Position numbers and translations under genes: made by a program. From contig CBDDOM010000002.1 in NCBI GenBank assembly GCA_965231875.1, positions 2,627,942 to 2,691,941 on the forward strand: 64,000 nt of DNA, given 5' to 3'. This DNA is from Alphaproteobacteria bacterium. GTDB taxonomy: Bacteria > Pseudomonadota > Alphaproteobacteria > MPNO01. This document shows, piece by piece, positions 3,060-64,000 of this stretch. The first letter of the stretch is position 1. Each line of letters opens with the position of its first letter. A model generated the notes under the pieces. The model ran no database searches. It was not told where the DNA came from and saw nothing but the letters and a program-made list of their open reading frames with translations.

Positions 3060-3064
3060 CTCCG

Positions 3065-3907: not shown

Positions 3908-3922
3908 CAGGCGGGAAGCGGG

Positions 3923-25976: not shown

Positions 25977-25982
25977 CGCGGC

Positions 25983-26537: not shown

Positions 26538-26540
26538 ACG

Positions 26541-27620: not shown

Positions 27621-27724
27621 GATTCTTCTCCCTGTAGAACGCCGGCAATCCGAAACCCACCGGCCTGGTCGCGAAAGTTTAGCGGACCCCGAACCGCGCG
27701 AACAGGCGCGCGCCTGTTCGGGCG

Positions 27725-28099: not shown

Positions 28100-28409
28100 G
28101 GCCTTCTCCCCTATGGCGGCAGTTTCCGGTGCGAGACTAGCCCATTTTCGCGCCGGGTCGAACCGGGGCGGCGCAACCGTCATTTCGACCGGAGCGCAGC
28201 GAGCGGAGAAATCTTCCCGCCGCGACGCTGCATCGGGCGTGACAGATATCTCCGCTCCGCCTCCCTCCGGTCGGCTCCGGTCGATATGACGACGGGGAGA
28301 TCGGATCGGTGCGACAAGAGGAGGTTGGGGGTTTGACTAGGCCCGCTTGTTGACACTCCCGACAGGTCGCCCCTAGGGTTTCCGCGCGTATTGGCACGGG
28401 GGAAGCACG

Positions 28410-35326: not shown

Positions 35327-35527
35327 TACGGCGGTCGTTTCCGGCATCCGGGCATGCCGCGCGGAACGCGTGATACTTCCCATTGCAGCAACAGGTTCTG
35401 CTATAGTGGCTCCGGTGCGCGCGGCGCTTCGTTCGGGGCGCAATCGAGGTGCCGGACGCCACCCGCCGGTTCGGCGGAACACGCCTGATCCGGACGGAGA
35501 TTTTCCTCAAACGGGGATCCCGGGACG

Positions 35528-36646: not shown

Positions 36647-36696
36647 CCCTCCGAGCGCAGGAAACCCGGGAGAACGCATACGCGGGGGCGACGGCC

Positions 36697-40833
<4,137 letters not shown>

Positions 40834-50545: not shown

Positions 50546-50684
50546 GGTGATGACTCCGTCTTCCCCGACCGCAAACCGCGCGGACCGTTTGTTGGGCCCG
50601 TATTGTACCGACGACGGACGCCGGTTGCGCGGCCGGGGCACGGCCCTATACTGTGACTACATTGGTTACAAACGGGGATCGCCG

Positions 50685-50927
50685 ATGCGACAGGTCCAGC
50701 TGCGCGAGGCCAAGGCGAGGCTGTCCGCCCTGGTCGACGGGGCGGCGGAGGGGGAGGCGACGATCGTCACGCGCCACGGCAAGCCGCGGGCCGTGATCGT
50801 CGGGATCGACGAATGGAACCGCCTCAGCAACGTCCCGTCCTTCGGCCGCCTGCTGCTCGCTTCGGAACTGGAGGACGGGGACCTGCCCCCGCGCGACACC
50901 GCCCCGCCGCGCGAGGCCGGGCTATAG
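50685..50927 (+). CDS. Type II antitoxin, Phd/YefM family
   Basis: 80 aa. MRQVQLREAKARLSALVDGAAEGEATIVTRHGKPRAVIVGIDEW is the canonical Phd/YefM N-domain. Confidence 0.7.
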   Translation: MRQVQLREAKARLSALVDGAAEGEATIVTRHGKPRAVIVGIDEWNRLSNVPSFGRLLLASELEDGDLPPRDTAPPREAGL

Positions 50928-50967
50928 AACGCATCCGTTTCAGGCGGAACCGCGTCCGCTGTTTCTG

Positions 50968-51079
50968 CCCGTCATGGTCGGCGTAGGCCGACCATCCACG
51001 TTTTCTCTTTTGTTGTTCTCCATCTGCATACCGGGCGAGAAAAAAACTCGTGGATGGTCGGCCTACGCCGACCATGACG
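50968..51079. repeat. Family-A REP/BIME-like palindromic element, copy 3 (inverted orientation, longer spacer)
   Basis: Hairpins read ATGGTCGGCgtagGCCGACCAT. The spacer is the reverse complement of the copy-1/2 spacer, with an 18-bp insertion. It sits between the Phd antitoxin gene and the VapC toxin gene. Confidence 0.8.
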
Positions 51080-51138
51080 GTGGGGGTGCGCCAGCCCGAC
51101 CGGTTCCGACCGAACCGGACACGCTCTAGGACCGCGTC

Positions 51139-51576
51139 GTGTACCTGGCCGACACCGATGTTCTGTCGACCGATGCGCCCGGCCGGCGGGAACGCTCCGC
51201 GGCCCTGGTCGACTGGATGGACGCGCGGTCGGACGCCTTGTTCCTGTCCACGATCACCGTCGCCGAAATCCGGCACGGCATCGCCAAGCTGGAACGGACC
51301 GGCGCCGCAGACAGGGCGGCGCGCCTCGGCGACTGGCTCGAACTCGTGCTCCATCTCTATGGCGACCGGGTAATCCCGTTCGACATAGAAGCCGCCAACG
51401 CCGCGGGGCCGCTGATGGACAAGGCGCGCGCGACGGGCCAGTCGCCCGGCTTCGCCGACCTCGCCATCGCCGCGACGGCAGACAGCCGGAACCTGACGGT
51501 GCTAACGCGCAACCTGCGTCACTTTGAGCCGCTGGATATCCAAGCGGTAAATCCGTTCGAAGCGTCGCCGGACTAA
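51139..51576 (+). CDS. Type II toxin, VapC (PIN-domain ribonuclease)
   Basis: YLADTDVLS...STITVAEIRHGIA...DLAIAATADSRNLTVLTRNLRHF is a PIN/VapC signature with intact acidic residues. Apparent GTG start with no obvious RBS. A stop codon lies 3 codons upstream in frame. Confidence 0.7.
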   Translation: MYLADTDVLSTDAPGRRERSAALVDWMDARSDALFLSTITVAEIRHGIAKLERTGAADRAARLGDWLELVLHLYGDRVIPFDIEAANAAGPLMDKARATGQSPGFADLAIAATADSRNLTVLTRNLRHFEPLDIQAVNPFEASPD

Positions 51577-51686
51577 GCGTGGTCCCGAGAAAGGGCCTCC
51601 TCCTCACATCCTCTCCGCGTTTAATGACCCCGTTGCTGAACCAAGGCCGCCAAAGCCGTATCTGGGCATTACATTCCACTTTATCC

Positions 51687-51716
51687 TTGACATTAGTCGT
51701 TCTCTGCAGCATAAGT
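51687..51716 (+). promoter_or_regulatory. Putative sigma70-like promoter of the AT-rich island gene
   Basis: TTGACA, 18 bp, ATAAGT, about 78 nt upstream of the ATG. A strong AAAGGAGAG RBS sits before the start. Confidence 0.4.
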
Positions 51717-51793
51717 TGTCGTCTGCCTCGTGGATTCGAGGACAGATGGTCGGCAATCAAGCTGCTGGATGGCGGCATTGAAAGGAGAGATAG

Positions 51794-52990
51794 ATGCTTC
51801 GTAAGTTCAGTTTCGCGCCGGAATTTGCTCGGCGCATACCCGATCCCAACTTCAAGTCCCAGTCTAACGCCGAACGACACCTATTTGTGATGGGTGTCAA
51901 ATCGATTCCTGCTGGCATCGGCCTAGATCCGAACGCGCGTCGGCCCAACATCTCGAAGCGCGTTTATCGAAAAGTTGAGGCCAGTTTGCTACAGCAGGAC
52001 GAGAGTCCCAGAGGGACTTTTCATCTGAAGAACAAAGGCATCACGATAATCGCTTCGTCGGTCAAGCAGTCGGGAGACCGAAAATACGAAATTGCTTTGG
52101 AGTCTGGTGTCCATGGTATCGTTGACGGTGGACACACTTATGAACTCATCATAAACAATCAAGAAAATCCAGAGCTGGCGGACGACCAATATGTGAACGT
52201 TGAAGTCCGCGTTGGAATTCCAGATCAGTGGATTCCTGAAATTGCGGGCGGCCTCAATACTTCAGTGCAGGTTCACGACATGAGTTTGGACCATCTCGCT
52301 GGACGCTTTGAGTGGCTGAAGGATTTGCTCAAGAAAGAAGAGTATTACGACACGATCGCTTGGTCGGAGAACGACAAAGGTGAATATGACGCCCGCGATA
52401 TCATAAGCATGATGCTGTGTTTCAACGTTGCTCTTTTCCCCAATGTTAAAGAGGATCACCCGATCGCCGCCTACGAAAAGAAGTCGACAGCCTTGAAGTT
52501 GTTTGAAGATAACGATGGTAGCTTCAAGCGCATGAGGCCGATACTCAAGGACATTTTGCGTTTCCATGATATCGTCGGAAAACAGGGCCGTGAGCTGTAT
52601 AATAAGTTGCCGAATACAAAAGGTGGAACTCTGGCGTTTGTCGATCAGCGCAAGCGGGGAAAGTATCGATTTCAATTCATCGGTGACGAAGACGATTATC
52701 GCCTTGCTCCCGGTGCGCTGTACCCGATGATGGCTGCATTCCGCTGGTACATTGAAGAAGACCCAATGTCGGGAAACATGAAATGGCGTGGCGGGTTCGC
52801 GAGCGTGCTAACGGCTTGGAATGAACTCGGAGGCGAACTAATGCGCGCCACGATGCAAACCAGTAACGAGTTGGGCCGAAATCCTCAATCTATCGGTAAG
52901 AGCCGCAATCACTGGTCGAACCTGCATTCTCGAGTCATTAAACATGACCTGATGAGCCAGAAGCGCCCAAACGCCGGCGCTGCTGAGTAA
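51794..52990 (+). CDS. Hypothetical protein in low-GC island; AIPR-like (abortive-infection phage-resistance) candidate
   Basis: 398-aa ORF in a segment with clearly lower GC and different codon usage than its surroundings. It has its own promoter and strong RBS. N-terminal KNKGITIIA and HGIVDGGHTYELII resemble the 'NNGITI ... IVNGxQT' core I associate with the AIPR family. That is an unverified recollection. Confidence 0.45.
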   Translation: MLRKFSFAPEFARRIPDPNFKSQSNAERHLFVMGVKSIPAGIGLDPNARRPNISKRVYRKVEASLLQQDESPRGTFHLKNKGITIIASSVKQSGDRKYEIALESGVHGIVDGGHTYELIINNQENPELADDQYVNVEVRVGIPDQWIPEIAGGLNTSVQVHDMSLDHLAGRFEWLKDLLKKEEYYDTIAWSENDKGEYDARDIISMMLCFNVALFPNVKEDHPIAAYEKKSTALKLFEDNDGSFKRMRPILKDILRFHDIVGKQGRELYNKLPNTKGGTLAFVDQRKRGKYRFQFIGDEDDYRLAPGALYPMMAAFRWYIEEDPMSGNMKWRGGFASVLTAWNELGGELMRATMQTSNELGRNPQSIGKSRNHWSNLHSRVIKHDLMSQKRPNAGAAE

Positions 52991-53042
52991 GAGGAAACCA
53001 CCGACTCGGGGGGCGACCGCCGACAAAGCGCGCTCCCGCCCC

Positions 53043-53930
53043 CTACCTCTGCACCCCCGCCAGCCCTTCCAGCACCGCACACACACTCGCCGTGTCCTCC
53101 GCCACTCGCCCCTGCGCCAGGGCGGCGTTGTAGATCTGTCCCGAGGCCGCGAAGCAGGGGGCGGCGCAGCCGACCTCCGCGAGGAAGTCGCCGATGACCT
53201 TCATGTCCTTGAGCTGCATGTCGATCGACGCCGAGGCGTTGGAATAATCCCCCGCGACCATCTGCGGGCCGCGCACCTCGAAGATGCGGGAGGTGGCGGC
53301 GCTGTTGGAGATCACCTCGTAAATCGTCTCCGGGTCGAGCCCCGCCTTGATGCCGAGCGCGAAGGCCTCGCCGGTGGCGACGTTGTGGATCGCGACCAGG
53401 AGATTGGCGACGAACTTCATCCGGCTGCCGTTGCCGAATTCGCCGAGGTCGTAATGGGCGCGGGAGAACCCCTCGAACACCTCGGTCAGGGACGCGATGG
53501 CCTGGCTGTCGCCGCTCGCATAGACCACGAGATCGCCGGCCGCGGCCTGGGTGCTGGTGCCGCTGAGCGGCACGTCGAGCAGGATCTTGCCGGTCTCGGC
53601 CAGCGTCGCGCGGCCGGCTTCCTTGATCGCGATGGGGAGCGTCGAGGTGTCGAAGGCGACGAGGCCGGGCTTTTCGGCGGCGCCGATCCCGTCCGCGCCC
53701 CCGATCACGTCCTCGAACGCCGCGATGGTGGGGAGCGAGGTCATCACGCAATCCGCGGCTTCCGCCACCGCGCGCGGGCTGTCGGCCACGCTGCCGCCCA
53801 TTGCCGCAAGGGCCTCGGCGCGCGCCGGGTCGGGATCCCGCCCCACCACCTGGAATCCGGCGGCGATCAGGTTCTTCGCCATCGCCCCGCCCATCCGGCC
53901 CAGCCCCACGATTCCGACCGTCTTCGCCAT
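53043..53930 (-). CDS. NAD(P)-dependent oxidoreductase, 3-hydroxyisobutyrate/6-phosphogluconate dehydrogenase-like
   Basis: N-terminal GIVGLGRMGGAMAKNL Rossmann motif and a C-terminal 6PGDH-like helical domain. GGGAGAGGGA RBS. Confidence 0.75.
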   Translation of the reverse strand: MAKTVGIVGLGRMGGAMAKNLIAAGFQVVGRDPDPARAEALAAMGGSVADSPRAVAEAADCVMTSLPTIAAFEDVIGGADGIGAAEKPGLVAFDTSTLPIAIKEAGRATLAETGKILLDVPLSGTSTQAAAGDLVVYASGDSQAIASLTEVFEGFSRAHYDLGEFGNGSRMKFVANLLVAIHNVATGEAFALGIKAGLDPETIYEVISNSAATSRIFEVRGPQMVAGDYSNASASIDMQLKDMKVIGDFLAEVGCAAPCFAASGQIYNAALAQGRVAEDTASVCAVLEGLAGVQR

Positions 53931-54007
53931 CGTCCCTCTCCCGCGCCGCGAGGCGCCCTGTGCTATAAGAACCGCCGCGCAACATAGCGGCTCGGGGAAG
54001 GCGGGGC

Positions 54008-56347
54008 ATGGCAAATCAGGGGGTGGGCGCGTCGATCGCGCGCAAGGAGGACGACCGCCTGATGCGCGGCCGCGGCCGTTTCGTGGGCGATTTCGGCCTC
54101 GCCGGCCAGCTCGAGGCGGCCTTCGTCCGGAGCCCCGTCGCGCATGCCCTGATCGGGGGGATCGACATCCCGGACGACATCCGTTCGCGCGTCTTCACCC
54201 ATGCCGACATGAAAGGCGTCAGGCCGATCCGCGCGGTCTCCGCCCTGCCGGGGTTCAAGCCCTCGTCCCAGCCGGCGCTGGCGTCGGAAAAGGTGCGCCA
54301 GGTGGGCGAGACGATCGCGATCTGCGTCGCCGACACCCGCGCCGAGGCCGAGGACATGGCCGACCGCGTCGCGGTCGATTTCGAGATCCTGCCGGCGATC
54401 TCCGACATGCTGACCGCCCGCGATCCGGACGCGCCGCTGATCCATGAGTCATGGGGCGACAACGTCTTCCTGGAGACCGATGTCGACGACGACATCGAGG
54501 CGGTCGCCGCCCGCGCCGCGGTCAAGGTGACGCGCGAGGTCCGCACCGCGCGGCAGTGCATGGCGCCGATCGAGGGCAAGGGGGTGCTCGCCGAGTGGGA
54601 TCCGAGGCTCCGCCAGCTCACCGTGACCTCGGCGGCCCAGCTCCCCCATATCGTCCGCAACGGGCTCGCCGAATGTCTCGGCATGGACCTCGCCAGCGTC
54701 CGGGTGATCGCGCCCGATGTCGGCGGCGGTTTCGGCTACAAGGGGATCCTCGCGCCGGAGGAGGTCTGCATCGCCTGGCTCGCCAGACGCCTGGAACGCC
54801 CGGTGCGCTGGCTGGAGGACCGGCGCGAGCACCTGACCGCCAACGCCAATTGCCGCGAGCACCACTACGTCGTCACCGGCTATGCCGACGCGGAGGGAAG
54901 GCTGCTCGGGCTGGAGGCGGAGGCGACGGTCGATGCCGGCGCCTATTCGGCCTACCCGTTCTCGGCCTGTCTCGAAGCCGCCCAGGTCGCCTCGATCCTG
55001 CCCGGGCCCTACCTCATGGACGCGTTCCGCTGCCGCACCTGGTCGATCGCCTCCAACAAGCCGCCGATCCTGCCCTTCCGCGGGGTGGCGCGGCCCGGCG
55101 TCTGCTTCGCGCTGGAACTCGTGATCGACGCCATCGCCCGCGAGGTCGGGCGCGAGCCGCACGAGGTCCGGCTGGACAACCTGGTGAAGCCCGAGCAGAT
55201 GCCGTTCGACAACATCACCGCCAAGCATTACGACAGCGGCGACTATCCGGAGAGCATCCGCCGCGCGGCCGAGGCGATCGACGTCGCCGGGGTCCGAGCG
55301 CGGCAGGCGCGCGGCGAGCCGGACGGGCGGCGCGTCGGGGTCGGGTTCTCGATCTTCTGCGAACAGGCCGGGCACGGGACGGCGGTCTATTCCGGCTGGG
55401 GGATCCCGATGATCCCGGGCTTCGAGCAGGCCGGCGCGCGGCTTACGCCGGACGGCGCGCTGGAACTCCGCGTCGGGGTCCACAGCCACGGCCAGGGGCT
55501 GGAGACCAGCCTCGCCCAGGTGGCGCACGAGGTGCTCGGCATCGACACCGACGACGTGCGGGTGGTGCTGGGCGATACCGCCTACACCCCCTACTCGACC
55601 GGGACGTGGGGATCGCGCTGCATGATCATGGCGGGTGGCGCGACGGCGGAGGCCTGCAGGCTGCTTGCCGAACGGATCCGCCAGATCGGCGCCGGGCTGC
55701 TGCAGGTCGATCCCGCCTCGGTGCGGCTGGAGGACGGAAGGGTGGCCGGCCCGTCCGGCAGCGTGACACTGCAGGAGGTCGGGCGCACCTGGTACCTGCG
55801 CCCGCAGGACCTGACCGCCGACGTCGACCGGCAGGGGCTGGAGGTCATCGGCGGCTACAAGCCCGAGCGCGATTCCGGCACCTTCAGCTATGCCTGCCAC
55901 GCCGCATTCGTCGCCGTCGACACCGCGACCGGCGAGGTCGAGATCCTGGATTACGTCGTGGTCGAGGACGGCGGGGTGCTGGTCAACCCGATGATCGTCG
56001 ACGGCCAGGTCTATGGCGGCACCGGGCAGGGCATCGGCACCGCGCTCTACGAGGAGATGCCCTACGCGGAGGACGGCCAGCCGCTCGCGCCCACGCTGGC
56101 CGACTACCTCTTGCCGGGGCCGACCGAGATCCCCTCGATCCGGGTCGACCACATGGAGACCCCCTCGCCCTACACCACCTTCGGGCAGAAGGGGATCGGC
56201 GAGGGCGGGGCTATCGGCCCGCCGGCGGCGATCGGCAACGCGATCAACGACGCGCTTGCGCCGCTCGGGGTCGAGGTCTCCGAGTGCCCGATCACGCCGC
56301 GCCGGCTGCTCGCCGCCATCGCCGCGGCGGGAGACGCCGGCAGGTGA
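54008..56347 (+). CDS. Xanthine dehydrogenase-family molybdopterin-binding subunit (CoxL/aldehyde-oxidase-like, stand-alone large subunit)
   Basis: 779 aa. N-terminal IARKEDDRLMRGRGRFVGD, with the Mo-cofactor binding domains following the family pattern. Confidence 0.8.
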   Translation: MANQGVGASIARKEDDRLMRGRGRFVGDFGLAGQLEAAFVRSPVAHALIGGIDIPDDIRSRVFTHADMKGVRPIRAVSALPGFKPSSQPALASEKVRQVGETIAICVADTRAEAEDMADRVAVDFEILPAISDMLTARDPDAPLIHESWGDNVFLETDVDDDIEAVAARAAVKVTREVRTARQCMAPIEGKGVLAEWDPRLRQLTVTSAAQLPHIVRNGLAECLGMDLASVRVIAPDVGGGFGYKGILAPEEVCIAWLARRLERPVRWLEDRREHLTANANCREHHYVVTGYADAEGRLLGLEAEATVDAGAYSAYPFSACLEAAQVASILPGPYLMDAFRCRTWSIASNKPPILPFRGVARPGVCFALELVIDAIAREVGREPHEVRLDNLVKPEQMPFDNITAKHYDSGDYPESIRRAAEAIDVAGVRARQARGEPDGRRVGVGFSIFCEQAGHGTAVYSGWGIPMIPGFEQAGARLTPDGALELRVGVHSHGQGLETSLAQVAHEVLGIDTDDVRVVLGDTAYTPYSTGTWGSRCMIMAGGATAEACRLLAERIRQIGAGLLQVDPASVRLEDGRVAGPSGSVTLQEVGRTWYLRPQDLTADVDRQGLEVIGGYKPERDSGTFSYACHAAFVAVDTATGEVEILDYVVVEDGGVLVNPMIVDGQVYGGTGQGIGTALYEEMPYAEDGQPLAPTLADYLLPGPTEIPSIRVDHMETPSPYTTFGQKGIGEGGAIGPPAAIGNAINDALAPLGVEVSECPITPRRLLAAIAAAGDAGR

Positions 56348-57303
56348 CCGCTCCGCCCTGTTCCGGCGTGGAGACCGGGCGGGAGCCCGCCGGGTTCGTC
56401 CTGCCCGAGCCCTCCGCGATCCTCGACCTCGTCATGGACGACGGCGCGCCGATCCGCGTCCTGCGCCACGGCAACCGGTCCGGCCCGCGCGTCGTGCTGA
56501 GCCACGGCAACGGCTTCGCGAGCGACACCTATTTCCCGTTCTGGCGGTCGATGCTGGAGCGCTTCGACCTCGCCCTGTTCGATTTCCGCAATTGCGGGCG
56601 CAACCCGTTCCACGCGGCGAAGCCGTTCGACTATCCGCGTTTCGCGCGGGACGGCGCGGCGGTGCACGGCGCCATCGCGGACGCGTGGGGCGCGAAGACC
56701 ACGATCGGCGTCTTCCATTCGATGTCGGCGACGACGGCGCTGTGCGAGGTCGTCGAGGGCATCTGGCACTGGGACGCGCTGGTACTGTTCGACCCGCCGG
56801 TGATGCCGCCGGAAGGCAACCCGCTGCGCGCCCGATTGATGGCCGAGGGCGAGGCGCTGCGCGACGCCGCCCTGATCCGCAAGAACCGGTTCCCCGACTC
56901 CGACGAGCTGGCCGACGTGTTCCGGTACCTGCACCGGTTCCGGCGTCTGCGCAAGGGGGTGGCGGAACTGATCGCGGGCTCGACGCTGCGCTTCGATGCC
57001 GCCTCTGGCGAGTGGCTGCTCTGCTGCCCGGGCCCGGTGGAGGCCGGACTCTATATCGAGGTCGGCAAGCTGCCCCTCTGGCGAAAGGCCGGCCCGCCGG
57101 CGCGCCCGCTGCTGATCGTGGGCGCCGACCCGGAGCCCGACGACGCGCCCCGGACCGCGCGCTGTTGCGAGGCGTTCTGCGGAACCTTCGGCATCGACTA
57201 TGCCTTCGTGCCCGATACCAGCCACCTCCTGCAGCTCGAAGAGCCGGAGCAATGTTTCGCCCTGCTGGAGGGTTTCCTCGCCGAAAACGGGATCGCCGCA
57301 TGA
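56344..57303 (+). CDS. Alpha/beta hydrolase, paralog 1 (non-canonical HS-x-SA nucleophile elbow)
   Basis: HGNGFASDTYFPFW ... GVFHSMSATTA. Apparent GTG start overlapping the upstream stop as GTGA. About 45% identical to the next gene. Confidence 0.6.
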   Translation: MTAPPCSGVETGREPAGFVLPEPSAILDLVMDDGAPIRVLRHGNRSGPRVVLSHGNGFASDTYFPFWRSMLERFDLALFDFRNCGRNPFHAAKPFDYPRFARDGAAVHGAIADAWGAKTTIGVFHSMSATTALCEVVEGIWHWDALVLFDPPVMPPEGNPLRARLMAEGEALRDAALIRKNRFPDSDELADVFRYLHRFRRLRKGVAELIAGSTLRFDAASGEWLLCCPGPVEAGLYIEVGKLPLWRKAGPPARPLLIVGADPEPDDAPRTARCCEAFCGTFGIDYAFVPDTSHLLQLEEPEQCFALLEGFLAENGIAA

Positions 57304-58226
57304 ACGCACCGCCGGATATCTTCCGTGTCCCCCAGCCGATCGAGAGCTTCGACGCCGAGATGGAGGACGGCGCCGTCATCCGCGTCCGCCGCCACGGCAA
57401 CCCGGACGGGCCCAGGCTGACGATGGCGCACGGCAACGGCTTCGCCATCGACGCCTATTACCCGTTCTGGCGGCTGCTGACCGACCGCTACGACCTCGCG
57501 ATCTACGACCAGCGCAACCACGGCCAGAACCCGCGCCACGACGCGGAGCGCCACGACGTTCCCGCCTTCGTCGCCGACATGGACCGGCTGATCGACCTCA
57601 TCTCCGAGCGTTTCGGCCCCAAGCCGACGGTCGGCGTGTTCCATTCGATCTCGGCGGTCACCGCGATCCGGCATGCGCTGGAGCATGGCTGGCGCTGGGA
57701 CGCGCTGGCGCTGTTCGACCCGCCGCTGATCCCCTCGCCCGGCCACCAGGCGCACGAGGTCGCGCGGACGTTCGAGCTGGGCCTCGCGGACTGGGCGGCG
57801 GCGCGGCCGGACCGTTTCTCGACCGCGATGGATCTCGCCGCCCGCTTCGCCCGGTCGAAGAGCCTCGCGCGCTGGGTGGAAGGCGGGCATGCCCTGATGG
57901 CGCGCTCGATCGTCCGCGAGGACCCGGAGACCGGGGAGTTCGTGCTGTGCTGCCCGCGCGAGGGGGAATCACGGGTCTACCGCACCAATGCCGGGATGGA
58001 CCTCTGCCCGCGCCTCGGCGAGCTCAAGGGACCGCTGGTCTTCATCTCGTCCGACCCCGACGCGCCGGGCGCGCTGGCTCCCGGCAAGGTCGGCCGCGCG
58101 ATGCAGGAAGACCACGGCATCGCGTGGACCCCGATCGAAAACACCAGCCACCTGCTCCAGATCGAACGCCCCGACGCCTGTCACACGGCGCTGGAAGCGT
58201 TCCTGGCGCGGCAGTCCCTGGGCTAG
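57300..58226 (+). CDS. Alpha/beta hydrolase, paralog 2 (non-canonical HS-x-SA nucleophile elbow)
   Basis: HGNGFAIDAYYPFW ... GVFHSISAVTA. The start overlaps the paralog-1 stop as ATGA. Confidence 0.65.
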   Translation: MNAPPDIFRVPQPIESFDAEMEDGAVIRVRRHGNPDGPRLTMAHGNGFAIDAYYPFWRLLTDRYDLAIYDQRNHGQNPRHDAERHDVPAFVADMDRLIDLISERFGPKPTVGVFHSISAVTAIRHALEHGWRWDALALFDPPLIPSPGHQAHEVARTFELGLADWAAARPDRFSTAMDLAARFARSKSLARWVEGGHALMARSIVREDPETGEFVLCCPREGESRVYRTNAGMDLCPRLGELKGPLVFISSDPDAPGALAPGKVGRAMQEDHGIAWTPIENTSHLLQIERPDACHTALEAFLARQSLG

Positions 58227-58267
58227 AGACTGTCCGATTCACTTGGAGCCGCCGCGCGAGCGGGGCG

Positions 58268-58370
58268 CCCTTCGATACGCGGCTTCGCCGCTACTCAGGG
58301 TGAGGGATGGGCTGTCGACGGCCAAAAAGTCTCCTCATCCCGAGTAGGCGCGAAGCGCCGTATCGAGGGA
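58268..58370. repeat. Family-B long imperfect palindrome, copy 2
   Basis: cccttcgatacgcggcttcgccgctactcagggtgaggg...cctcatcccgagtaggcgcgaagcgccgtatcgaggga. The arms are nearly identical to copy 1 and the spacer is different. It lies about 40 nt after the hydrolase stop. Confidence 0.75.
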
Positions 58371-58453
58371 CGCCACGTCGGCACGGTTCCATCCAACACG
58401 GATAGACCCCTGAGCGCCCCCGGAGATCCGAAAATAGTCCCGTTTCGGGACAA

Positions 58454-58469
58454 TGTTTCACGTGAAACA
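58454..58469. other. parS site 1 (perfect match to canonical ParB-binding centromere sequence)
   Basis: TGTTTCACGTGAAACA is a perfect 16-bp palindrome, identical to the canonical parS consensus TGTTNCACGTGAAACA. Confidence 0.75.
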
Positions 58470-58490
58470 ATGGTCAACAATGCTGACCTA

Positions 58491-58506
58491 TGTTTCACGT
58501 GAAACA
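58491..58506. other. parS site 2 (perfect match), 21 bp from site 1
   Basis: A second exact TGTTTCACGTGAAACA. The 21-bp gap between the sites holds the small palindrome GGTCA-acaatgc-TGACC. Confidence 0.75.
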
Positions 58507-58528
58507 TTAGGCGCGGTTCCCGGCGGCG

Positions 58529-59620
58529 TCAGCGGCCCTCGACCCGCATGTCCTCGGGCACGATGCGGCCGCTGTCGACGATGGTCTCGTTGTCGAGGGT
58601 GAGCGAACAGCCCTTGAGCGGGATGTCGATATGGCACAGCGTGTCGTTGTCGCCGCCGACCTCGGTATTGGGGCCGGTCGAGAACAGGACGTTGCCGTAG
58701 AAGGCGCGTCCGTCCTGGCCGGTGGAGTCCGCCGCCGCCGGGTCGGTGCCCATGAAGTCCCAGCGCGCCCTCGGATCGAGCCCCCAGCCGATATGCGAGA
58801 CCGCGTAGGCGCGCGGATCGTCGTAGCTCGCCATGAAGCTCCGCAACAGCTCGGCATCAAGTCCGGGGCCGGCGATGTCGGTGATCATGCCGCTTTCGAC
58901 GGTGAGCGTGATCGGGTCGGTGACGTAGCGCATCGACGGCAGCAGCAGCTGGTCGCCGGTGTCGATAACCACCTTTCCGTCGACGCCGTCCTCCACCGCC
59001 GCGGTGTACAGGAACACGCCCGGCCAGTGGTCCCAGCGGCCCGGCTCATCGGTGTAGCCGTACTGCTCGCCGATCCGGTAGCCGCCGAAACGGTAGGTGA
59101 CGTCGGTGCCGCCGGGCGAGGTGATGCGCATCTCCTTCGCCTTCGCCAGCCTGGCCGATGCGGCCTCGATGCGGCGCCGGTCGCCGGGGTTCGACACCAT
59201 CCGCTTGAGCACGTCGATCGGCTCGATGATCAGCAGCATGCGCGGCCCGGCATCGGTGATCTCGGTCTGCTCCTTCGACCAGAGCAGCCCGACCAGGTCG
59301 ACCACCATGTCGACGCTCTTGAGCGCCGCCTTCGCGGGCTCGTTGCCCTGCAGCGAATTGCCCGGCCCGAAGAAGCTGCCCGGCTTCTTCCTGATATTGA
59401 CCTGGAACGCATCCGCTTCGAGCTCGGCCGCGGCGGCGAGACACGCCGTCGCGTGCTCGGTCCGCACGTCGTCTTCCGAGAGCACGGCGACGCTGGTCCC
59501 CTGGCCCACGTCGCAAAGATCGAGCTGCTTCCTGAACAACGCGACTGTTTCGGCATCCGCAACCATCGTTCCCTCCGCCTTTTGCCGCCCGTCCCGGGCG
59601 CGTTGTGAAAACGCTATCAC
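58529..59620 (-). CDS. M29-peptidase-fold protein, 2,5-dihydroxypyridine dioxygenase (NicX)-like / aminopeptidase-T-like
   Basis: 363 aa. HIGWGLDP and a C-terminal CHIDIPL...TLDNETIVDSGRI match the His/His-x-Asp metal-site pattern of the M29/NicX family. Recalled, not searched. Confidence 0.5.
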   Translation of the reverse strand: MIAFSQRARDGRQKAEGTMVADAETVALFRKQLDLCDVGQGTSVAVLSEDDVRTEHATACLAAAAELEADAFQVNIRKKPGSFFGPGNSLQGNEPAKAALKSVDMVVDLVGLLWSKEQTEITDAGPRMLLIIEPIDVLKRMVSNPGDRRRIEAASARLAKAKEMRITSPGGTDVTYRFGGYRIGEQYGYTDEPGRWDHWPGVFLYTAAVEDGVDGKVVIDTGDQLLLPSMRYVTDPITLTVESGMITDIAGPGLDAELLRSFMASYDDPRAYAVSHIGWGLDPRARWDFMGTDPAAADSTGQDGRAFYGNVLFSTGPNTEVGGDNDTLCHIDIPLKGCSLTLDNETIVDSGRIVPEDMRVEGR

Positions 59621-59651
59621 CCGCCGTTCGAGGCGGCAAGAAAAGCGGGCG

Positions 59652-60122
59652 TCAGACCGGCTTTGCGAGCAGGGTCGGGATCGAGAAGGTGTCGAGCACG
59701 ACGACCCGCTCGACCAATTTGAGCGCGCCGCCGAAGCGCCCCATCGTGTCGCGGTAGCAGCCGACCGCGAACAGGCGCGACACGCCGTCTACGTCGGTCT
59801 GGTAGAGCGCGTAGTTCGTCTCGACCTCGATCCGGTCGTCCCGGTCGGCGACGATGCGGGGCGGACCGGCGATATGCCGCGTGGTGTGCGGGTTGAAGGT
59901 GTTGGCCCTGAGCAGCGAGACGATCCGGTCGCTCAGCGCCTTCTTGGTCTCGCACAGCATGACGCTGCCGGGCAGGCCCTGCTGGACGTTCTCCAGCGGC
60001 ACGATTCGGTAGGCGCACTCGTCGTGGAAGAGGTCGAGCCAGGCCTGCCAGTCCTCGTTGTCGAGCGCTGCGGAGGACTCGGCGATCAGGGCTTCGACAC
60101 GCGCCCGGAGCCCGGTGTCCAC
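59652..60122 (-). CDS. Aromatic ring-hydroxylating dioxygenase beta (small) subunit
   Basis: 156 aa, NTF2-like. WQAWLDLFHDECAYRIV...NYALYQTD is the typical beta-subunit pattern. It follows the alpha subunit after 3 nt. Confidence 0.7.
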   Translation of the reverse strand: MDTGLRARVEALIAESSAALDNEDWQAWLDLFHDECAYRIVPLENVQQGLPGSVMLCETKKALSDRIVSLLRANTFNPHTTRHIAGPPRIVADRDDRIEVETNYALYQTDVDGVSRLFAVGCYRDTMGRFGGALKLVERVVVLDTFSIPTLLAKPV

Positions 60123-60125
60123 GCG

Positions 60126-61382
60126 TCAGCCCCCGCCCGGGTCGAGGCCCATGATGTCGCAGTAATAGGACCAGAAACCGCGGATCATCACGTCGTCGAG
60201 CTTTTCGTCGCCGTCCCGGATGGGCCCGCGCCCGCCCATCTCGACCACCGACGCATCGCTCCCGCCCGCGCGGTGGCCGGACTGGCAGGATTCGAGGGCC
60301 TCGGCGTCCTCCAGCGAGACATAGCCGGCGGGGCCGGCCATGTTGGCCTGCCGGAGCCGGTGCGCGGTCATCTCCTCGCTGTCGTCCTGGTAGCCGAAGA
60401 TCGTGAAGACGAGGTCGAACGCGCCCGGGCCCCTGGGCCGGATCTGGCGCGCCGCGAGCGCGTTCCGGATCTGCTGGAAGGTGCTGTTGGGAAAGATCGA
60501 GCACATCGTGGTCGACCGGTCGTCCTCGAACTCGCGCTCGAAGCGGAGCAAGGCCGGGTCCTGGAGCGCCAGCCTCGCCCCGTCGGCCGCCTCGGCGAGG
60601 GGGCGCAGACGCGCGGCGCTATCGATGCCCGGCGCGGGAGCGTTCTCGTATTCCTCGCGCGGCTGGCGGACGAAGAGGAGGCTGTGCCGGCCTTCCGGAT
60701 CCATCCGCGAGCCGCAGTCGTGGGTCGAGCGGTTGATCCCGAAGGTGCTCTGGAATCCGTGCAGGAGCGCGCCGTGATAGTGGTCGCGGACGTTCTCCAG
60801 ATAGGCCTTCCAGTTGCTGCGCACCGCCTGGCGCTGGTAGCCGAGAACCCGGACCGGCGCCCGGAACAGGCGTTCCAGATGGGCGACATGCGTCGGGCCG
60901 AGATAGTCGCGCAGCGGCTCGACGGTCTCGGAGAAGGTCGCGAACAGGGCGCCGTTCACGCGGTCCACGCGGAGCTTCCTGAGCCCGTGGCAGGCCATGT
61001 CGAAGTCGTCCGGCATGCCCGGGCTGCCGCCGACGCCATGGCGGTGGGGAACCGCGACCAGATCGCCCGCGAGGTCGTAGGTCCAGCTGTGATAGAGGCA
61101 GACATGGGCGGAGACGTTGCCGAAATTCTCGCGCTGGATCAGCGCGCCCCGATGCGAGCAGCGGTTGACGAAAGCGTGGACCCGCCCGTCCCCGGCACGG
61201 TTGTAGACGACCGGCGCCTCGCCGACGAAAGTCCGGCGGAAATCGCCCGGCTCCGGGACTTCGGCTTCGAGCCCGAGGAACGACCAGGTCTCCCCCTCGA
61301 AGATGCGCTCGATCTCCAGCCGGTAGAGCGCCTCGTCGTGATACCAAGCGTAGGGGATGCGATCGAAACCGGAACGATCCAT
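60126..61382 (-). CDS. Aromatic ring-hydroxylating dioxygenase alpha subunit (Rieske 2Fe-2S)
   Basis: CSHRGALIQ...CLYHSWTY Rieske CxH-x17-CxxH motif. About 418 aa with a C-terminal catalytic domain. Confidence 0.8.
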   Translation of the reverse strand: MDRSGFDRIPYAWYHDEALYRLEIERIFEGETWSFLGLEAEVPEPGDFRRTFVGEAPVVYNRAGDGRVHAFVNRCSHRGALIQRENFGNVSAHVCLYHSWTYDLAGDLVAVPHRHGVGGSPGMPDDFDMACHGLRKLRVDRVNGALFATFSETVEPLRDYLGPTHVAHLERLFRAPVRVLGYQRQAVRSNWKAYLENVRDHYHGALLHGFQSTFGINRSTHDCGSRMDPEGRHSLLFVRQPREEYENAPAPGIDSAARLRPLAEAADGARLALQDPALLRFEREFEDDRSTTMCSIFPNSTFQQIRNALAARQIRPRGPGAFDLVFTIFGYQDDSEEMTAHRLRQANMAGPAGYVSLEDAEALESCQSGHRAGGSDASVVEMGGRGPIRDGDEKLDDVMIRGFWSYYCDIMGLDPGGG

Positions 61383-61457
61383 CGTCGGCCCCCTTCTTGC
61401 TCCCTGAGTTTCGACTCTATCGGTTCCAGGGGGAACGCGCCAAGCGCGGGGTGCCGC

Positions 61458-62255
61458 TCAGAGGCACTCCGCGATTGCGTCCTCGGTGAGCACCTCGATC
61501 AGATGCGCGCGGTAGGCGGCGGTGCCATGGAGGTCGTCGGTCAGACCGTCTGGCGGCACCGACAGTCCCGCGAGCGAATCGGGGTGGAACGAGCGTTCGA
61601 GCGCGCGCTCGAACGCCTCCACCCGGAACACGCAGGAACCCGCCCCGGTGACCGCGACCCTGACACCGCCGTCGGCGAAGCGGGCGAGGAAGACCCCGAC
61701 GATGGAGAACCGCGACGCCGGGTTGGGAAATTTCCGGTAGCTCGCGGCGGTGGGGACCGGGAAGCGCACCTCGACGATCAGCTCGCCGGGTGCCAGCGCG
61801 GTCTCGAACATCCCGAGGAAAAAGTCCCCGGCCGGGATTGGGCGCTTTGTCGTGACGATCTCCGCGCCGAGCGCGAGCACCGCCGAGGGGTAGCAGGCGG
61901 CGGGGTCGTTGTTGGCGAGCGAGCCGCCGACGGTCCCCCGGTTGCGCACCAGCGGATCGCCGATCCCGCCGGCCAGCGCGGCGATGGCGGGGATGGCCCT
62001 CTTCACCGTCCCGGACGCCGCCACCGCCGCGTGCGGCGTCATCGCCCGGATTACGAGCACGCCGGGTTCGGCGGAGACGCCCACAAGTTCGCCGAGCCCC
62101 GCGAGGTCCACGAGGTCGGACGGCGACGCCAGACGATGCTTCATCACCGGGATCAGGCTCATCCCGCCGGCCAGCGGGCGTCCGTCTTCCCCGGAGACAA
62201 GCAGCTGTTCGGCGTCGGCGATCGTGCCCGGCCGGTGGTAGCGGTAGGGGTACAT
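61458..62255 (-). CDS. Xanthine-dehydrogenase-family FAD-binding subunit (CoxM/XdhB-like)
   Basis: 265 aa. MYPYRYHRPGTIADAEQLL...AGGMSLIPVMK...GTVGGSLANNDPAACYP FAD-binding-5 motifs. Confidence 0.75.
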   Translation of the reverse strand: MYPYRYHRPGTIADAEQLLVSGEDGRPLAGGMSLIPVMKHRLASPSDLVDLAGLGELVGVSAEPGVLVIRAMTPHAAVAASGTVKRAIPAIAALAGGIGDPLVRNRGTVGGSLANNDPAACYPSAVLALGAEIVTTKRPIPAGDFFLGMFETALAPGELIVEVRFPVPTAASYRKFPNPASRFSIVGVFLARFADGGVRVAVTGAGSCVFRVEAFERALERSFHPDSLAGLSVPPDGLTDDLHGTAAYRAHLIEVLTEDAIAECL

Positions 62256-62725
62256 CAGACCTCCGCCATCGCCGCCGCGCCGGCAAGAATCGCCGCGACG
62301 ATATTCTGGTAGCCCGTGCAGCGGCAGAGATTGCCTTCCAGACCCGCCCGGACCGAGTCCGCGTCCGTCGCGCCGCCGCGCCGGATCATGTCGAGCGCGC
62401 TCATGATCATGCCGGGCGTGCAGAACCCGCATTGCAGCGCGTGGTGCTCCTTGAAAGCGGCTTGCAGCGGGTTGAGCCCGTCCGCCGGCGAGACCCCTTC
62501 GATGGTGGTCACCGCTTGCCCCTCGGCCTGGGCGGCGAAGACGGTGCAGGACTTCACCGCGATCCCGTCGAGATGGACGGTGCAGGCGCCGCACTGGCTG
62601 GTATCGCACCCGACATGGGTGCCGGTGAGCCCAGCCTGGCGGCGGATGAACTCGACCAGCAGCATTCTCGGGTCGATTTCCGCCCGGCGCTCGCGGCCGT
62701 TGATGTCGAGCGCGACGGGGATCAT
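62255..62725 (-). CDS. Xanthine-dehydrogenase-family (2Fe-2S)-binding subunit (CoxS-like)
   Basis: CGACTVHLDG, then CGFCTPG and CRCTGY, are two [2Fe-2S] Cys clusters. Start at MIPVALDINGRE, overlapping the upstream stop as ATGA. Confidence 0.8.
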   Translation of the reverse strand: MIPVALDINGRERRAEIDPRMLLVEFIRRQAGLTGTHVGCDTSQCGACTVHLDGIAVKSCTVFAAQAEGQAVTTIEGVSPADGLNPLQAAFKEHHALQCGFCTPGMIMSALDMIRRGGATDADSVRAGLEGNLCRCTGYQNIVAAILAGAAAMAEV

Positions 62726-64000
62726 CCGGCCCGGGCCTCCTCGATCGCCCGCCACACGGCGTCGGGCGTGTAGGGCTGACGCACATGGCGGACGCCGAGA
62801 TCCCAGAGCGCATCGACGATCGCGTTGCCGATCGCCGCCGGAGCCCCGATGGTGCCGGTCTCGCTGCCGCCCTTGACGCCGAGCGGGTTGGACGGCGCCG
62901 GCGTCTCCTGGAAGGTCATGCCGACATCCGGCATGTCGGAGGCGCGCGGCAGCGCGTAGTCCATCAGGGTGCCGGAGAAGAGCTGCCCCGCGCCGCCGCC
63001 GTCATAGACCACGCGTTCCATCAGCGCCTGGCCGAGCCCCTGGGCGAGCCCGCCGACGACCTGTCCCTCGACGATCAGCGGGTTGATTATCTTGCCGCAA
63101 TCGTCGGCCGTGAAGTAGTCGCGCACCGTCGCCTTGCCGGAGCGGGGTTCCACGAGGACCACCGCGAGATGCATCGCCTGCGGGTCGTTGGTGTCGGGCG
63201 GCTCATAGAAGACGGTTTCCTCCAGCCCCGGCTCCATCGACCCGTCGGCCGGCAGCACCGCGCCGTGATAGGCGGCGTCGGCCACGTCCTCGAAGCTGAG
63301 TTCGCGGTCGGTGCCGCGCACCGAAAAGACCGAATTCCCGTAGACCAGGTCTTCCTCGGCGCATTCGAGCATGTGGGAGGCCAGGCGCCTAGCCTTGTCG
63401 ATCACCCTGTCGGCCGCCTTCATGATCGCGATACCGCCGACCGAGAGCGAGCGCGACCCCCAGGTGCCGTTGCCGAACGGCACGCTCCCGGTATCGCCCT
63501 CGACCAGCGCGATGTCCTCGATGGGCAAGCCGAGACGGTCGGCGGCGATCTGGCAAAACGTGGTGTCGTGGCCTTGGCCGTGGCTGTGCGAGCCGACGAA
63601 GACGGTCGCCTTGCCGTCCGAATGGACGCGCACGATGGCGCTCTCGTAGCCGCCGTGAAGGCCGCCGCGGCTGGCCAGGTTACGGCTCGATCCGGTGCCC
63701 GACTTGTCGAGGAAGCAGGCGATGCCGATTCCCATCCGCACACCGTCTTCACGGAGCCGCTTCTGCTCCGCGCGCAGGGCGTCGTAATCGGCAATCTTCA
63801 GCAGCTTGTCGAACAGCGCCGGCGGATCGCCGCAATCGTAGGGGCGCCCGACCGGGGTCGTGTAGGGGAAGGCCTCCGCCGGGATCAGGTTGCGGCGGCG
63901 GATCTCGGTCACGTCGATGCCGAGCTCGCGCGCGCCGTTCTCCAGCAGCCGCTCGTTGACGAAGGTCGCCTCGGGCCGGCCGGAGCCGCGATAGGCGTCG
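62722..64000 (-). CDS. Xanthine-dehydrogenase-family molybdopterin-binding subunit (CoxL-like). 3' part only; the 5' end lies beyond the window edge.
   Basis: The C-terminal half of a Mo-binding large subunit (GIGIACFL...GSHSHGQGHDTTFCQIAA...). The reading frame stays open to position 64000. Confidence 0.75.
   Translation of the reverse strand, partial: DAYRGSGRPEATFVNERLLENGARELGIDVTEIRRRNLIPAEAFPYTTPVGRPYDCGDPPALFDKLLKIADYDALRAEQKRLREDGVRMGIGIACFLDKSGTGSSRNLASRGGLHGGYESAIVRVHSDGKATVFVGSHSHGQGHDTTFCQIAADRLGLPIEDIALVEGDTGSVPFGNGTWGSRSLSVGGIAIMKAADRVIDKARRLASHMLECAEEDLVYGNSVFSVRGTDRELSFEDVADAAYHGAVLPADGSMEPGLEETVFYEPPDTNDPQAMHLAVVLVEPRSGKATVRDYFTADDCGKIINPLIVEGQVVGGLAQGLGQALMERVVYDGGGAGQLFSGTLMDYALPRASDMPDVGMTFQETPAPSNPLGVKGGSETGTIGAPAAIGNAIVDALWDLGVRHVRQPYTPDAVWRAIEEARAG

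Follow-up and report, generated by a model that had tools for sequence, protein, structure and literature searches.

The closest described counterpart of the locus analysed here is the pic cluster of Alcaligenes faecalis JQ135, which comprises PicA1A2A3, PicB1-4, PicC, PicD, PicE, PicF and PicG and degrades picolinate (bioRxiv 10.1101/530550). In this pathway, PicA, a CoxLMS-like enzyme, converts picolinate to 6-hydroxypicolinate; PicB, a four-component Rieske oxygenase likened to AndA and NagGH, forms 3,6-dihydroxypicolinate; the decarboxylase PicC yields 2,5-dihydroxypyridine; the NicX-like PicD cleaves the ring; and the deformylase PicE, the amidase PicF and the isomerase PicG finish the route (bioRxiv 10.1101/530550). 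The present analysis concerns a catabolic gene cluster at positions 53043-64000 of a 64,000-nucleotide stretch of the genome of an uncultured, Defluviicoccus-like member of the Alphaproteobacteria (contig CBDDOM010000002.1), the whole of which is referred to as the window. By enzyme type, the minus-strand operon of this cluster corresponds to PicA, the PicB large and small subunits and PicD in their order of action. The cluster is proposed, with moderate confidence and on the basis of sequence comparisons, to serve the breakdown of a picolinate- or nicotinate-type pyridine-carboxylic acid, or of a close N-heteroaromatic carboxylate, by the logic of the pic pathway. A role in N-heterocycle catabolism, already put forward in a preliminary description of this DNA, was retained as the best reading.

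Both systems encode a three-subunit CoxLMS-type molybdenum (Mo) hydroxylase, likened here by domain architecture, whose genes adjoin those of an AndA/NagG-type Rieske alpha/beta oxygenase of the aryl-carboxylate subfamily with its conserved arginine. Both also encode a NicX-type dioxygenase and one or more hydrolases of the alpha/beta fold. The hydrolases of the window, however, do not appear to be of the PicE/NicD type, and PicC, PicF, PicG, the ferredoxin and reductase of PicB, the regulator and the transporter are features of pic alone, with none detected in the flanks of related loci or in the window, scanned in full apart from 3060-5500 and 12321-14400. Conversely, an orphan Mo subunit (CoxL2), a pair of hydrolases (Hyd1 and Hyd2) and a beta-hydroxyacid dehydrogenase of the semialdehyde-reductase type are found in the window and not in pic. 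Since pic already uses a Mo hydroxylase, a Rieske oxygenase and a NicX-type enzyme in succession (PicA, PicB, PicD), the Rieske step is not a new substitution, and the earlier suggestion that a Rieske enzyme in place of a flavin monooxygenase represents a new organisation does not hold. The cluster is a lineage-specific variant with a core enzyme logic known from pic, and it overturns no current understanding. Three of its features stand out, namely the orphan Mo subunit, the tandem hydrolases with a non-canonical nucleophile elbow, and the missing electron-transfer and downstream enzymes.

The nic pathway of Pseudomonas putida KT2440 and the Hpo/Nfo enzymes of P. putida S16 share with the window a NicX-type ring cleavage with an identical Fe site, as well as a serine hydrolase with a NicD/Nfo-like Ser-to-Asp spacing of +24. 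The NicC flavin monooxygenase, NicF and NicE of nic are lacking in the window. NicAB is a two-subunit Mo enzyme, whereas the Mo enzyme of the window is a three-subunit CoxLSM. Hyd1 and Hyd2 are approximately 40-50 residues longer than NicD and Nfo, and carry F-H-S-x-S where NicD-like proteins carry G-H-S-M-G. The quinoline pathway of P. putida 86 resembles the window in that a Mo hydroxylase is followed by a Rieske oxygenase, and the large subunit of its Mo enzyme, QorL, is the best solved match of CoxL2. In that pathway, Qor is followed by 2-oxoquinoline 8-monooxygenase, an alpha-only Rieske enzyme, and there is no NicX-type cleavage; the Rieske oxygenase of the window, in contrast, is of the alpha/beta aryl-carboxylate type.

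Gene content and catalytic signatures

The window has approximately 68% G+C, so that raw lists of open reading frames (ORFs) were full of spurious frames, and genes at 53043-64000 were called on the basis of third-position GC (approximately 0.9 in real genes) and translation. This procedure resolved ten intact genes, which include the two converging operons. Pfam and NCBIfam domains agreed with every gene label except that of the NicX-like protein; the local Pfam copy was without a NicX model, and this protein was identified by means of its match to PDB 7CN3 and the precomputed PF26233 family. Framing, translation and domain content reproduced the gene inventory and the convergent layout of the preliminary description. 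The features are as follows:

53043-53933, minus strand, beta-hydroxyacid dehydrogenase-like protein of 296 amino acids (aa), with Pfam NAD_binding_2 and NAD_binding_11
54008-56347, plus strand, CoxL2, Mo-binding subunit of the xanthine-dehydrogenase family, 779 aa, with Pfam Ald_Xan_dh_C, MoCoBD_1 and MoCoBD_2
56344-57303, plus strand, Hyd1, alpha/beta hydrolase of 319 aa with a GTG start, assigned by Pfam Abhydrolase_6
57300-58226, plus strand, Hyd2, alpha/beta hydrolase of 308 aa, assigned by Pfam
58227-58528, no strand, intergenic insert of 302 nt between the converging operons, recognised by its fold and palindromes
58529-59572, minus strand, NicX-family non-haem Fe(II) ring-cleavage dioxygenase of 347 aa, assigned by its match to PDB 7CN3
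59652-60122, minus strand, Rieske beta (small) subunit of 156 aa, with Pfam Ring_hydroxyl_B and SnoaL_4
60126-61382, minus strand, Rieske alpha subunit of 418 aa, with Pfam Rieske and Ring_hydroxyl_A
61458-62255, minus strand, CoxM-like subunit of 265 aa binding flavin adenine dinucleotide (FAD), with Pfam FAD_binding_5
62255-62725, minus strand, CoxS-like subunit of 156 aa with two [2Fe-2S] clusters, with Pfam Fer2 and Fer2_2
62722 to beyond 64000, minus strand, CoxL1, Mo-binding subunit, of which the C-terminal 425 aa lie in the window, with Pfam MoCoBD_1 (end) and MoCoBD_2

Gene boundaries had been described as overlapping in ATGA, which applies to the CoxL1/CoxS and Hyd1/Hyd2 junctions and not to the others. 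The CoxL2/Hyd1 junction is GTGA, the GTG start of Hyd1 overlapping the stop of CoxL2; the CoxS/CoxM junction is a 1-nt overlap (TGATG); and three short gaps separate the Rieske alpha and beta genes (3 nt), CoxM from Rieske alpha (75 nt) and Rieske beta from the NicX-like gene (79 nt). The position at which the cluster had been said to start, 53043, is the end of the dehydrogenase gene, which had been left undescribed.

The NicX-like protein is a true member of the NicX dioxygenase family, as judged from its sequence. It matched the crystallised NicX (PDB 7CN3) with an E value of 7e-82 and 43% identity, residues 4-343 being aligned to 3-348, and its homologues carry PF26233. The Fe of NicX is bound by His265, Ser302, His318 and Asp320, and its substrate is contacted by Leu104, His105, Glu177 and His189 (PMC7910607). 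Alignment placed H260, S298, H314 and D316 at the four ligand positions, all of them conserved, and these four residues were kept in 117 of 118 aligned homologues, the exception being P0011 from a low-coverage contig. The metal site proposed for inspection in the preliminary description is therefore complete. At the substrate contacts, W98 replaces NicX H105 and Q170 replaces E177, and H182 at the position of H189 is the only one kept; Gly occupies the positions of NicX Cys76 and Val175. The variants H105F and H105M of NicX retain activity (PMC7910607). The nearest outgroup clade (62-66% identity), with Trp, Gln and Ala at the contacts, includes homologues in locus L025, from Lichenifustis, and in L032, which adjoin genes for an HpaB-type monooxygenase, a NicD-like hydrolase of 265 aa and a NicF-like isochorismatase. 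This gene set is the canonical context for conversion of 2,5-dihydroxypyridine via maleamate to maleate, so the Trp/Gln active-site signature is compatible with cleavage of 2,5-dihydroxypyridine. Together with the activity of the H105 variants, this means that the contact differences do not establish a new substrate, and W98 and Q170 as the mark of a new specificity were correspondingly weakened as a candidate. Cleavage of 2,5-dihydroxypyridine to N-formylmaleamate is the activity predicted for a NicX family member.

The Rieske alpha subunit contains a CxH-x17-CxxH cluster motif and, by alignment, the mononuclear-iron ligands H203, H208 and D359. Its PDB matches, at approximately E 1e-94, were the terephthalate dioxygenases 7VJU and 7Q04 and the salicylate 5-hydroxylase NagG (7C8Z). 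Among NCBIfam models, AndAc scored best for the alpha subunit (429 bits against a cut-off of 750) and AndAd was matched by the beta subunit (128 bits against 230). The characterised members of the aryl-carboxylate subfamily are TphA2, NagG, AndAc, AhdA1c and hydroxypicolinate 3-monooxygenase, all of which use aryl carboxylates, and a subfamily-wide arginine (R309 in the terephthalate dioxygenase TPADO, R323 in NagG) forms a salt bridge with the substrate carboxylate (PMC9060491). In an alignment whose numbering was calibrated on the Fe ligands, the equivalent of TPADO R309 was conserved as R312. Judged by these similarities, the alpha subunit is a member of the aryl-carboxylate subfamily (TphA2/NagG/AndAc/PicB), and the oxygenase points to a carboxylated substrate.

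CoxL1 and CoxL2 both have hammerhead and two molybdenum cofactor (MoCo)-binding domains according to Pfam, and are only approximately 35% identical to each other. The full length of CoxL1 was estimated at approximately 790-805 aa, and its orthologues in L018 and L006 have 788-805 aa. The best PDB matches of CoxL1 were CoxL and CutL, followed by QorL, while CoxL2 matched best the large subunit of quinoline 2-oxidoreductase, 1T3Q (QorL; E 3e-138). The active-site loops read AYRGSGR in CoxL1 and PFRGVAR in CoxL2. The CoxL loop of carbon monoxide (CO) dehydrogenase is (V)AYRCSFR with a Cu-binding Cys, and this Cys loop is missing from both proteins. All NCBIfam equivalog models, that of CO dehydrogenase included, scored far below their cut-offs for both, and a CO-dehydrogenase reading of the CoxL proteins was rejected on the loop motifs.

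The preliminary description called CoxL2 a stand-alone subunit. No FAD or FeS subunits are adjacent to it, and CoxS and CoxM are the only possible partners within the window. Orthologues with 67% identity in cultured Methylobacterium, Azospirillum, Geminicoccaceae and Paraburkholderia, however, each have their own FAD and FeS subunits, so that the stand-alone condition is a derived state. These orthologues lie in an operon that encodes MarR, an amidohydrolase/deacetylase, in some cases an HGGYW-type hydrolase, the Mo, FAD and FeS subunits and a branched-chain-type ABC transporter (L045 6841-13420; L046 8983-12634; L047 7840-14453; L048 8750-13718), including copies on Methylobacterium radiotolerans pMRAD01 and in Azospirillum brasilense. 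The names of these and other context proteins (amidohydrolase, HGGYW-type hydrolase, CMD, cupin) are generic ones taken from NCBIfam. To our knowledge, no substrate has been assigned to this operon. The lineage of the window has kept only the Mo subunit, whose gene now shares an operon with the Hyd pair, and the amidohydrolase, FAD and FeS subunits, transporter and MarR are gone; the hydrolase of the orthologous operons belongs to a different family from Hyd1 and Hyd2. The Azospirillum copy adjoins genes for an amidase, HpxZ and DUF1116, which are oxalurate/oxamate-type genes. In locus L020, genes for FeS and FAD subunits are likewise missing from the vicinity of two stand-alone CoxL genes, and orphan Mo subunits appear to be frequent in the lineage of the window.

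The 11-kb block was syntenic in 11 genome loci and in several metagenome contigs, with 71-95% amino-acid identity, and is thereby shared by approximately 12 Defluviicoccus-like metagenome-assembled genomes (MAGs). The ratio of nonsynonymous to synonymous substitution rates (dN/dS) was 0.10-0.36 across all ten genes, which indicates purifying selection, and the block stayed intact in relatives whose flanks and spacer vary. Synteny and purifying selection together indicate that the arrangement is more than chance. Scanning metagenomes yielded further loci of this lineage only. In a plasmid collection searched for a copy from a cultured organism, the same cluster was not found: relatives of CoxL1 and NicX there had at most 49% identity and those of Rieske alpha at most 48%, none of these lay in the same cluster, and those whose contexts were inspected belonged to canonical maleamate pathways or to clusters for aromatic meta-cleavage. 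Beyond position 64000, relatives with 93-95% identity indicate the rest of CoxL1, a GFA-domain gene, dapF, mtaB, ftsY and a NUDIX gene; upstream of CoxL1 in these relatives, the operon continues into no further catabolic genes, reductase or regulator.

The tandem hydrolases

Hyd1 and Hyd2 are paralogues with 40% identity, and the N-terminal extension of Hyd1 is homologous to Hyd2 and to orthologues. Their nucleophile elbows are TIGVFHSMSA in Hyd1 (GVFHS at nt 56707-56721) and TVGVFHSISA in Hyd2 (GVFHS at nt 57633-57647), and thus read exactly as previously reported, GVFHSM/ISA instead of G-x-S-x-G. The view of this elbow as a local peculiarity was not borne out, as it is a conserved signature of a large and widespread family, found also away from NicX. 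The family gave 1261 matches at E <= 1e-3, and 119 of 120 homologues combined an F-H-S-[IMV]-S elbow (G-x-F-H-S-[IV]-S-[AG]) with an HGNGF loop, in place of the canonical G-x-S-x-G. In Hyd2, S116, D140 and H284 as well as the HGNGF loop were invariant in 45 homologues. An AlphaFold2 model of Hyd2 (mean predicted local distance difference test score 95.6) placed S116 between the strand 110-115 and the helix 117-129, and S116, D140 and H284 are the predicted Ser-Asp-His triad. S116 and D140 are 24 residues apart, as are the Ser and Asp of NicD (S101, D125) and Nfo (S94, D118).

A Foldseek search with the Hyd2 model gave E-2-(acetamidomethylene)succinate hydrolase (3KXP) as the top match, with template modelling (TM) scores of 0.75/0.85, and Nfo (PDB 4L0C) at rank 35. 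Sequence identity to 3KXP and Nfo was only 16-17%; the alpha/beta-hydrolase fold is common to all three, while only the Hyd family has the elbow motif and the HGNGF loop. The 3KXP enzyme, which acts in pyridoxine degradation, and Nfo both hydrolyse N-acyl products of pyridine ring cleavage. NicD-like proteins of 265-270 aa with a GHSMG elbow, which reads GHSMGA in the one beside a Variovorax NicX, showed 26-30% identity to Hyd1 and Hyd2 over part of their length. Such partial similarity to canonical NicD-like proteins speaks against reading the hydrolases as NicD-like deformylases, and orthology of Hyd1 and Hyd2 to NicD was rejected on this partial identity, the different elbow and the lack of any match to Nfo.

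The genomic contexts of the family vary. In L022, from a marine Rhodospirillaceae, a member with 60% identity lies beside genes for an M24 peptidase and a sulfatase, and in L029 a tandem Hyd1-like/Hyd2-like pair lies among PhyH, thiolase and enoyl-CoA hydratase (ECH) genes, both loci being without NicX or Mo enzymes. The more distant contig L030 has orthologues of CoxL1 (77%), CoxL2 (75%) and Hyd2 (65%) within 18 kb, beside a TRZ/ATZ-type heterocycle deaminase. Plasmid pAt15-1187-1-2a1 of Agrobacterium tumefaciens (L050 3281-9873) has an operon in the order Mo subunit (1003 aa), FAD subunit, FeS subunit, cupin, PcaD-like hydrolase and Hyd; this Hyd protein has the elbow GIFHSMSA, is 39% identical to Hyd2, and is the sole member from a cultured organism at this level of similarity in the plasmid collection. 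Enzymes of the xanthine-dehydrogenase family occurred in three of the five independent contexts of the hydrolase family.

Predicted pathway and competing explanations

The gene identities, catalytic residues, synteny and purifying selection are observed, and from them a route can be inferred by homology; each reaction, the substrate, the sharing of CoxS and CoxM and the coupling of the two operons belong to this inferred part. CoxL1-CoxS-CoxM would hydroxylate the ring carbon next to the nitrogen, with water as the oxygen source, and the Rieske alpha/beta oxygenase would hold the hydroxylated carboxylate by Arg312 and add a second hydroxyl, giving a 2,5-dihydroxypyridine-type compound. The NicX-family Fe(II) dioxygenase would open the ring of this compound between C5 and C6 to an N-acyl-maleamate-type product. 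The convergent plus-strand operon would supply the downstream hydrolytic steps, in which the serine hydrolases Hyd1 and Hyd2, likely N-acyl/amide hydrolases, would replace NicD and possibly NicF. CoxL2 may be a second substrate-specific Mo subunit that widens or extends the substrate range; it would have to borrow an FeS and an FAD subunit, for which CoxS and CoxM, 6 kb away, are the simplest candidates. The divergent beta-hydroxyacid dehydrogenase may handle a semialdehyde or hydroxy-acid product. The ferredoxin and reductase of the Rieske enzyme, any decarboxylase, a maleamate amidase and a maleate isomerase would be encoded elsewhere or be dispensable. Two sub-variants are conceivable: (a) a pic-type route with the decarboxylase encoded elsewhere, and (b) a route in which either hydroxylation by the Rieske enzyme also removes the carboxylate, as with AhdA1c and AndAc, or the carboxylated diol is itself a substrate of the NicX-like enzyme. 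A more specific version, free of decarboxylase and NicF, is considered rather unlikely: NicX, with its Gly/Gly and Trp/Gln pocket, would cleave a 2,5-dihydroxypyridine that retains its carboxylate, such as 3,6-dihydroxypicolinate, to an N-oxalyl-maleamate-type product, the Hyd pair, possibly as a heteromer, would split this product in two steps, and CoxS/CoxM would serve both CoxL1 and CoxL2 and might feed electrons to the Rieske enzyme, for which the cluster encodes no reductase.

Several observations are in favour of the pyridine-carboxylate route. Among them are the complete NicX metal site, the Rieske arginine R312, the match in enzyme types with pic, the CoxL loops without the Cys of CO dehydrogenase together with the CoxL- and quinoline 2-oxidoreductase-type similarity of both subunits, and the conservation of the block. 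A Rieske gene lies directly upstream of the NicX orthologue in L013, L016 and L020, and this pairing counts for the proposed succession of steps. The closest fold of Hyd2, as modelled, is that of an enzyme acting on an N-acyl ring-cleavage product, and the additional match to Nfo is consistent with the role suggested for the Hyd pair. The link between the two operons is supported by L030 and by the Mo-Hyd operon of Agrobacterium.

Other observations weigh against this route. The pathway as encoded at the locus is incomplete: scanning of window genes and of 10-kb flanks in the relatives revealed no PicC (Amidohydro_2), NicF-type isochorismatase or maleate isomerase, and no ferredoxin, reductase, transporter or regulator either, in line with the earlier statement that no regulator or reductase is visible. 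In the NicX-like protein, two of the three substrate-contact residues compared are altered. The Foldseek ranking was shallow, with many unrelated esterases and haloperoxidases scoring almost alike, and Hyd1 and Hyd2 showed no detectable sequence similarity to Nfo. Members of the hydrolase family with 60-71% identity occur in contexts free of NicX and Mo enzymes (L022, L029). Synteny, moreover, is weak evidence for functional coupling, all of it being drawn from a single shallow lineage. L020 has an alpha-only Rieske gene ahead of its NicX orthologue (75% identity) and an Amidohydro_2 gene beside a second NicX paralogue (44%), and these two paralogues hint at different substrates and at a window-type NicX that is not simply coupled to PicC. 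Finally, no Mo-hydroxylase, AndAc-type Rieske or Hyd gene was found within 10 kb of the NicX orthologue in L010.

The possibility that two unrelated modules lie side by side is taken seriously, albeit as an unlikely one. In this case, CoxL1SM, the Rieske enzyme and NicX would form a heterocycle pathway, and CoxL2, Hyd1, Hyd2 and the dehydrogenase would be the remnant of another Mo-hydroxylase pathway with, for example, a lactam or an amino-heterocycle as substrate, so that the hydrolases would not process the NicX product. Such a division would agree with the presence of the 67%-identical CoxL2 orthologues in a separate, widely conserved operon without NicX or Rieske genes, with the occurrence of the tandem pair in L029 and of a single Hyd gene in L022, both without NicX, with the use of NicD-like and isochorismatase enzymes in canonical NicX contexts, and with the fact that the two operons are separate transcription units converging on a variable spacer. 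On the other hand, the supposed boundary is bridged in L030, where CoxL1-like, CoxL2-like and Hyd-like genes occur together, CoxS and CoxM are the only FeS/FAD partner of CoxL2 in the window, the block stays intact while flanks and spacer vary, and a NicX operon on its own would end in an unprocessed N-acyl amide. The cluster could, as another explanation, belong to tryptophan, kynurenine or anthranilate catabolism, the Rieske enzyme acting on anthranilate or a hydroxy-aminobenzoate and the NicX-like enzyme on an aminophenol-type intermediate instead of a pyridine. AndAc and AndAd are the top NCBIfam models of the Rieske subunits, and in L010 (7706-11038, MAG jk18x9bins.50) the genes for tryptophan 2,3-dioxygenase and kynureninase precede, in the same orientation, that of an 86%-identical NicX orthologue; the ORFs scanned there did not include one for kynurenine formamidase. 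Both model scores, however, are far below their cut-offs, Rieske alpha is equally close to terephthalate and salicylate enzymes, a co-transcribed Mo hydroxylase would be needless for anthranilate degradation, and the characterised NicX, Hpo and PicD all act on 2,5-dihydroxypyridine. The gene order in L010 was seen once only, and it would be explained equally well if the physiological substrates were picolinate or quinolinate, with which the kynurenine pathway ends. Anthranilate-type catabolism is accordingly held to be improbable.

Two further explanations would remove the basis for any heterocycle pathway. If CoxLSM were a form II-type dehydrogenase of CO or another small molecule, its adjacency to the oxygenase genes would be incidental; in both PDB and NCBIfam, CoxL1 is matched best by large subunits of aerobic CO dehydrogenases, but the loops without Cu-binding Cys, the low NCBIfam scores, the absence of coxDEFG accessory genes, the gene order L-S-M and the continuation of the operon into Rieske and NicX genes make this very improbable. 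Some database sources name homologues of the NicX-like protein leucyl aminopeptidase, and with an ordinary aminopeptidase at this position the heterocycle reading would collapse, which is a refuting condition named in the preliminary description. Neither the M29 peptidase profile of Pfam nor any PDB chain of an M29 structure was matched at E <= 10, against 7e-82 for NicX, and the His, Ser, His and Asp ligands of NicX are present in a protein whose homologues carry PF26233. The aminopeptidase reading was tested and rejected on the Fe-site motif and the two M29 nulls, and is regarded as scarcely credible; of the label M29/NicX-like used previously, only the second half stands.

If pyridine-carboxylate degradation by the pic logic is true for this cluster, pyridine-carboxylates could be mineralised by Defluviicoccus-type glycogen-accumulating bacteria, a group abundant in wastewater plants and sponges. 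Picolinate, nicotinate and quinolinate are natural metabolites of tryptophan and NAD and common industrial N-heterocycles. It would also provide the first functional context for the large uncharacterised F-H-S-I-S/HGNGF hydrolase family, which occurs repeatedly near enzymes of the xanthine-dehydrogenase family, and an orphan Mo subunit that shed its FeS and FAD partners would make the sharing of subunits between molybdenum hydroxylases testable.

Dehydrogenase, spacer and surrounding genes

The beta-hydroxyacid dehydrogenase gene diverges from CoxL2 across a gap of 74 bp and is syntenic in all relatives. Its product belongs to the 3-hydroxyisobutyrate dehydrogenase (HIBADH)/tartronate-semialdehyde reductase family, for which the best NCBIfam models all scored below cut-off. 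The top PDB matches, with nearly equal scores, were tartronate semialdehyde reductase, 3PDU and 2-hydroxymethylglutarate dehydrogenase; a specific assignment as a 2-(hydroxymethyl)glutarate dehydrogenase-like enzyme was discarded, since this ranking does not discriminate.

The spacer at 58227-58528 contains two perfect 16-bp palindromes, TGTTTCACGTGAAACA, at 58454-58469 and 58491-58506, which are 37 bp apart and occur within the window only in this spacer (0 expected by chance). Its predicted RNA fold has an energy of -169 kcal/mol (z = -12.3). The same pair of palindromes was found at the same place in L009, L018 and L019, and in L002 and L003 the gap between the operons is 9 bp. A search of 50000-64000 against Rfam gave no match, the spacer included, and a scan for promoters and terminators stayed at background level. 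The spacer looks like an insertion of the miniature inverted-repeat transposable element (MITE) or repetitive extragenic palindromic (REP) type, or a bidirectional terminator.

Next to the cluster, at 50445-52990, are genes for a Phd/YefM antitoxin, a PIN toxin and a low-GC AIPR abortive-infection protein (third-position GC approximately 0.55, compared to approximately 0.9), located between the cluster and a conserved 2-hydroxyacid dehydrogenase gene. At this spot, relatives have a reverse transcriptase and an IS1595 transposase, or KilA-N genes, and the region is a variable hot spot for defence genes and mobile elements. The related MAG locus L020 (1-16728) has its two NicX paralogues near the same dapF-mtaB-ftsY neighbourhood that relatives indicate beyond the end of the window. 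At 33914-40294, dnaA, dnaN, recF and gyrB show that the window covers the chromosomal replication-origin region, and the catabolic cluster starts approximately 13 kb from gyrB. The rest of the window contains housekeeping genes, including those for a penicillin-binding protein (PBP) and an ABC-F protein, and unrelated enzymes. The region 24663-29462 encodes a tripartite ATP-independent periplasmic (TRAP) transporter (DctP, DctQ, DctM), a VanA-type Rieske oxygenase of 350 aa and a cytidine/dCMP-deaminase-like protein, and may be a separate small unit for uptake and demethylation of an aromatic compound or heterocycle, unrelated to the cluster.

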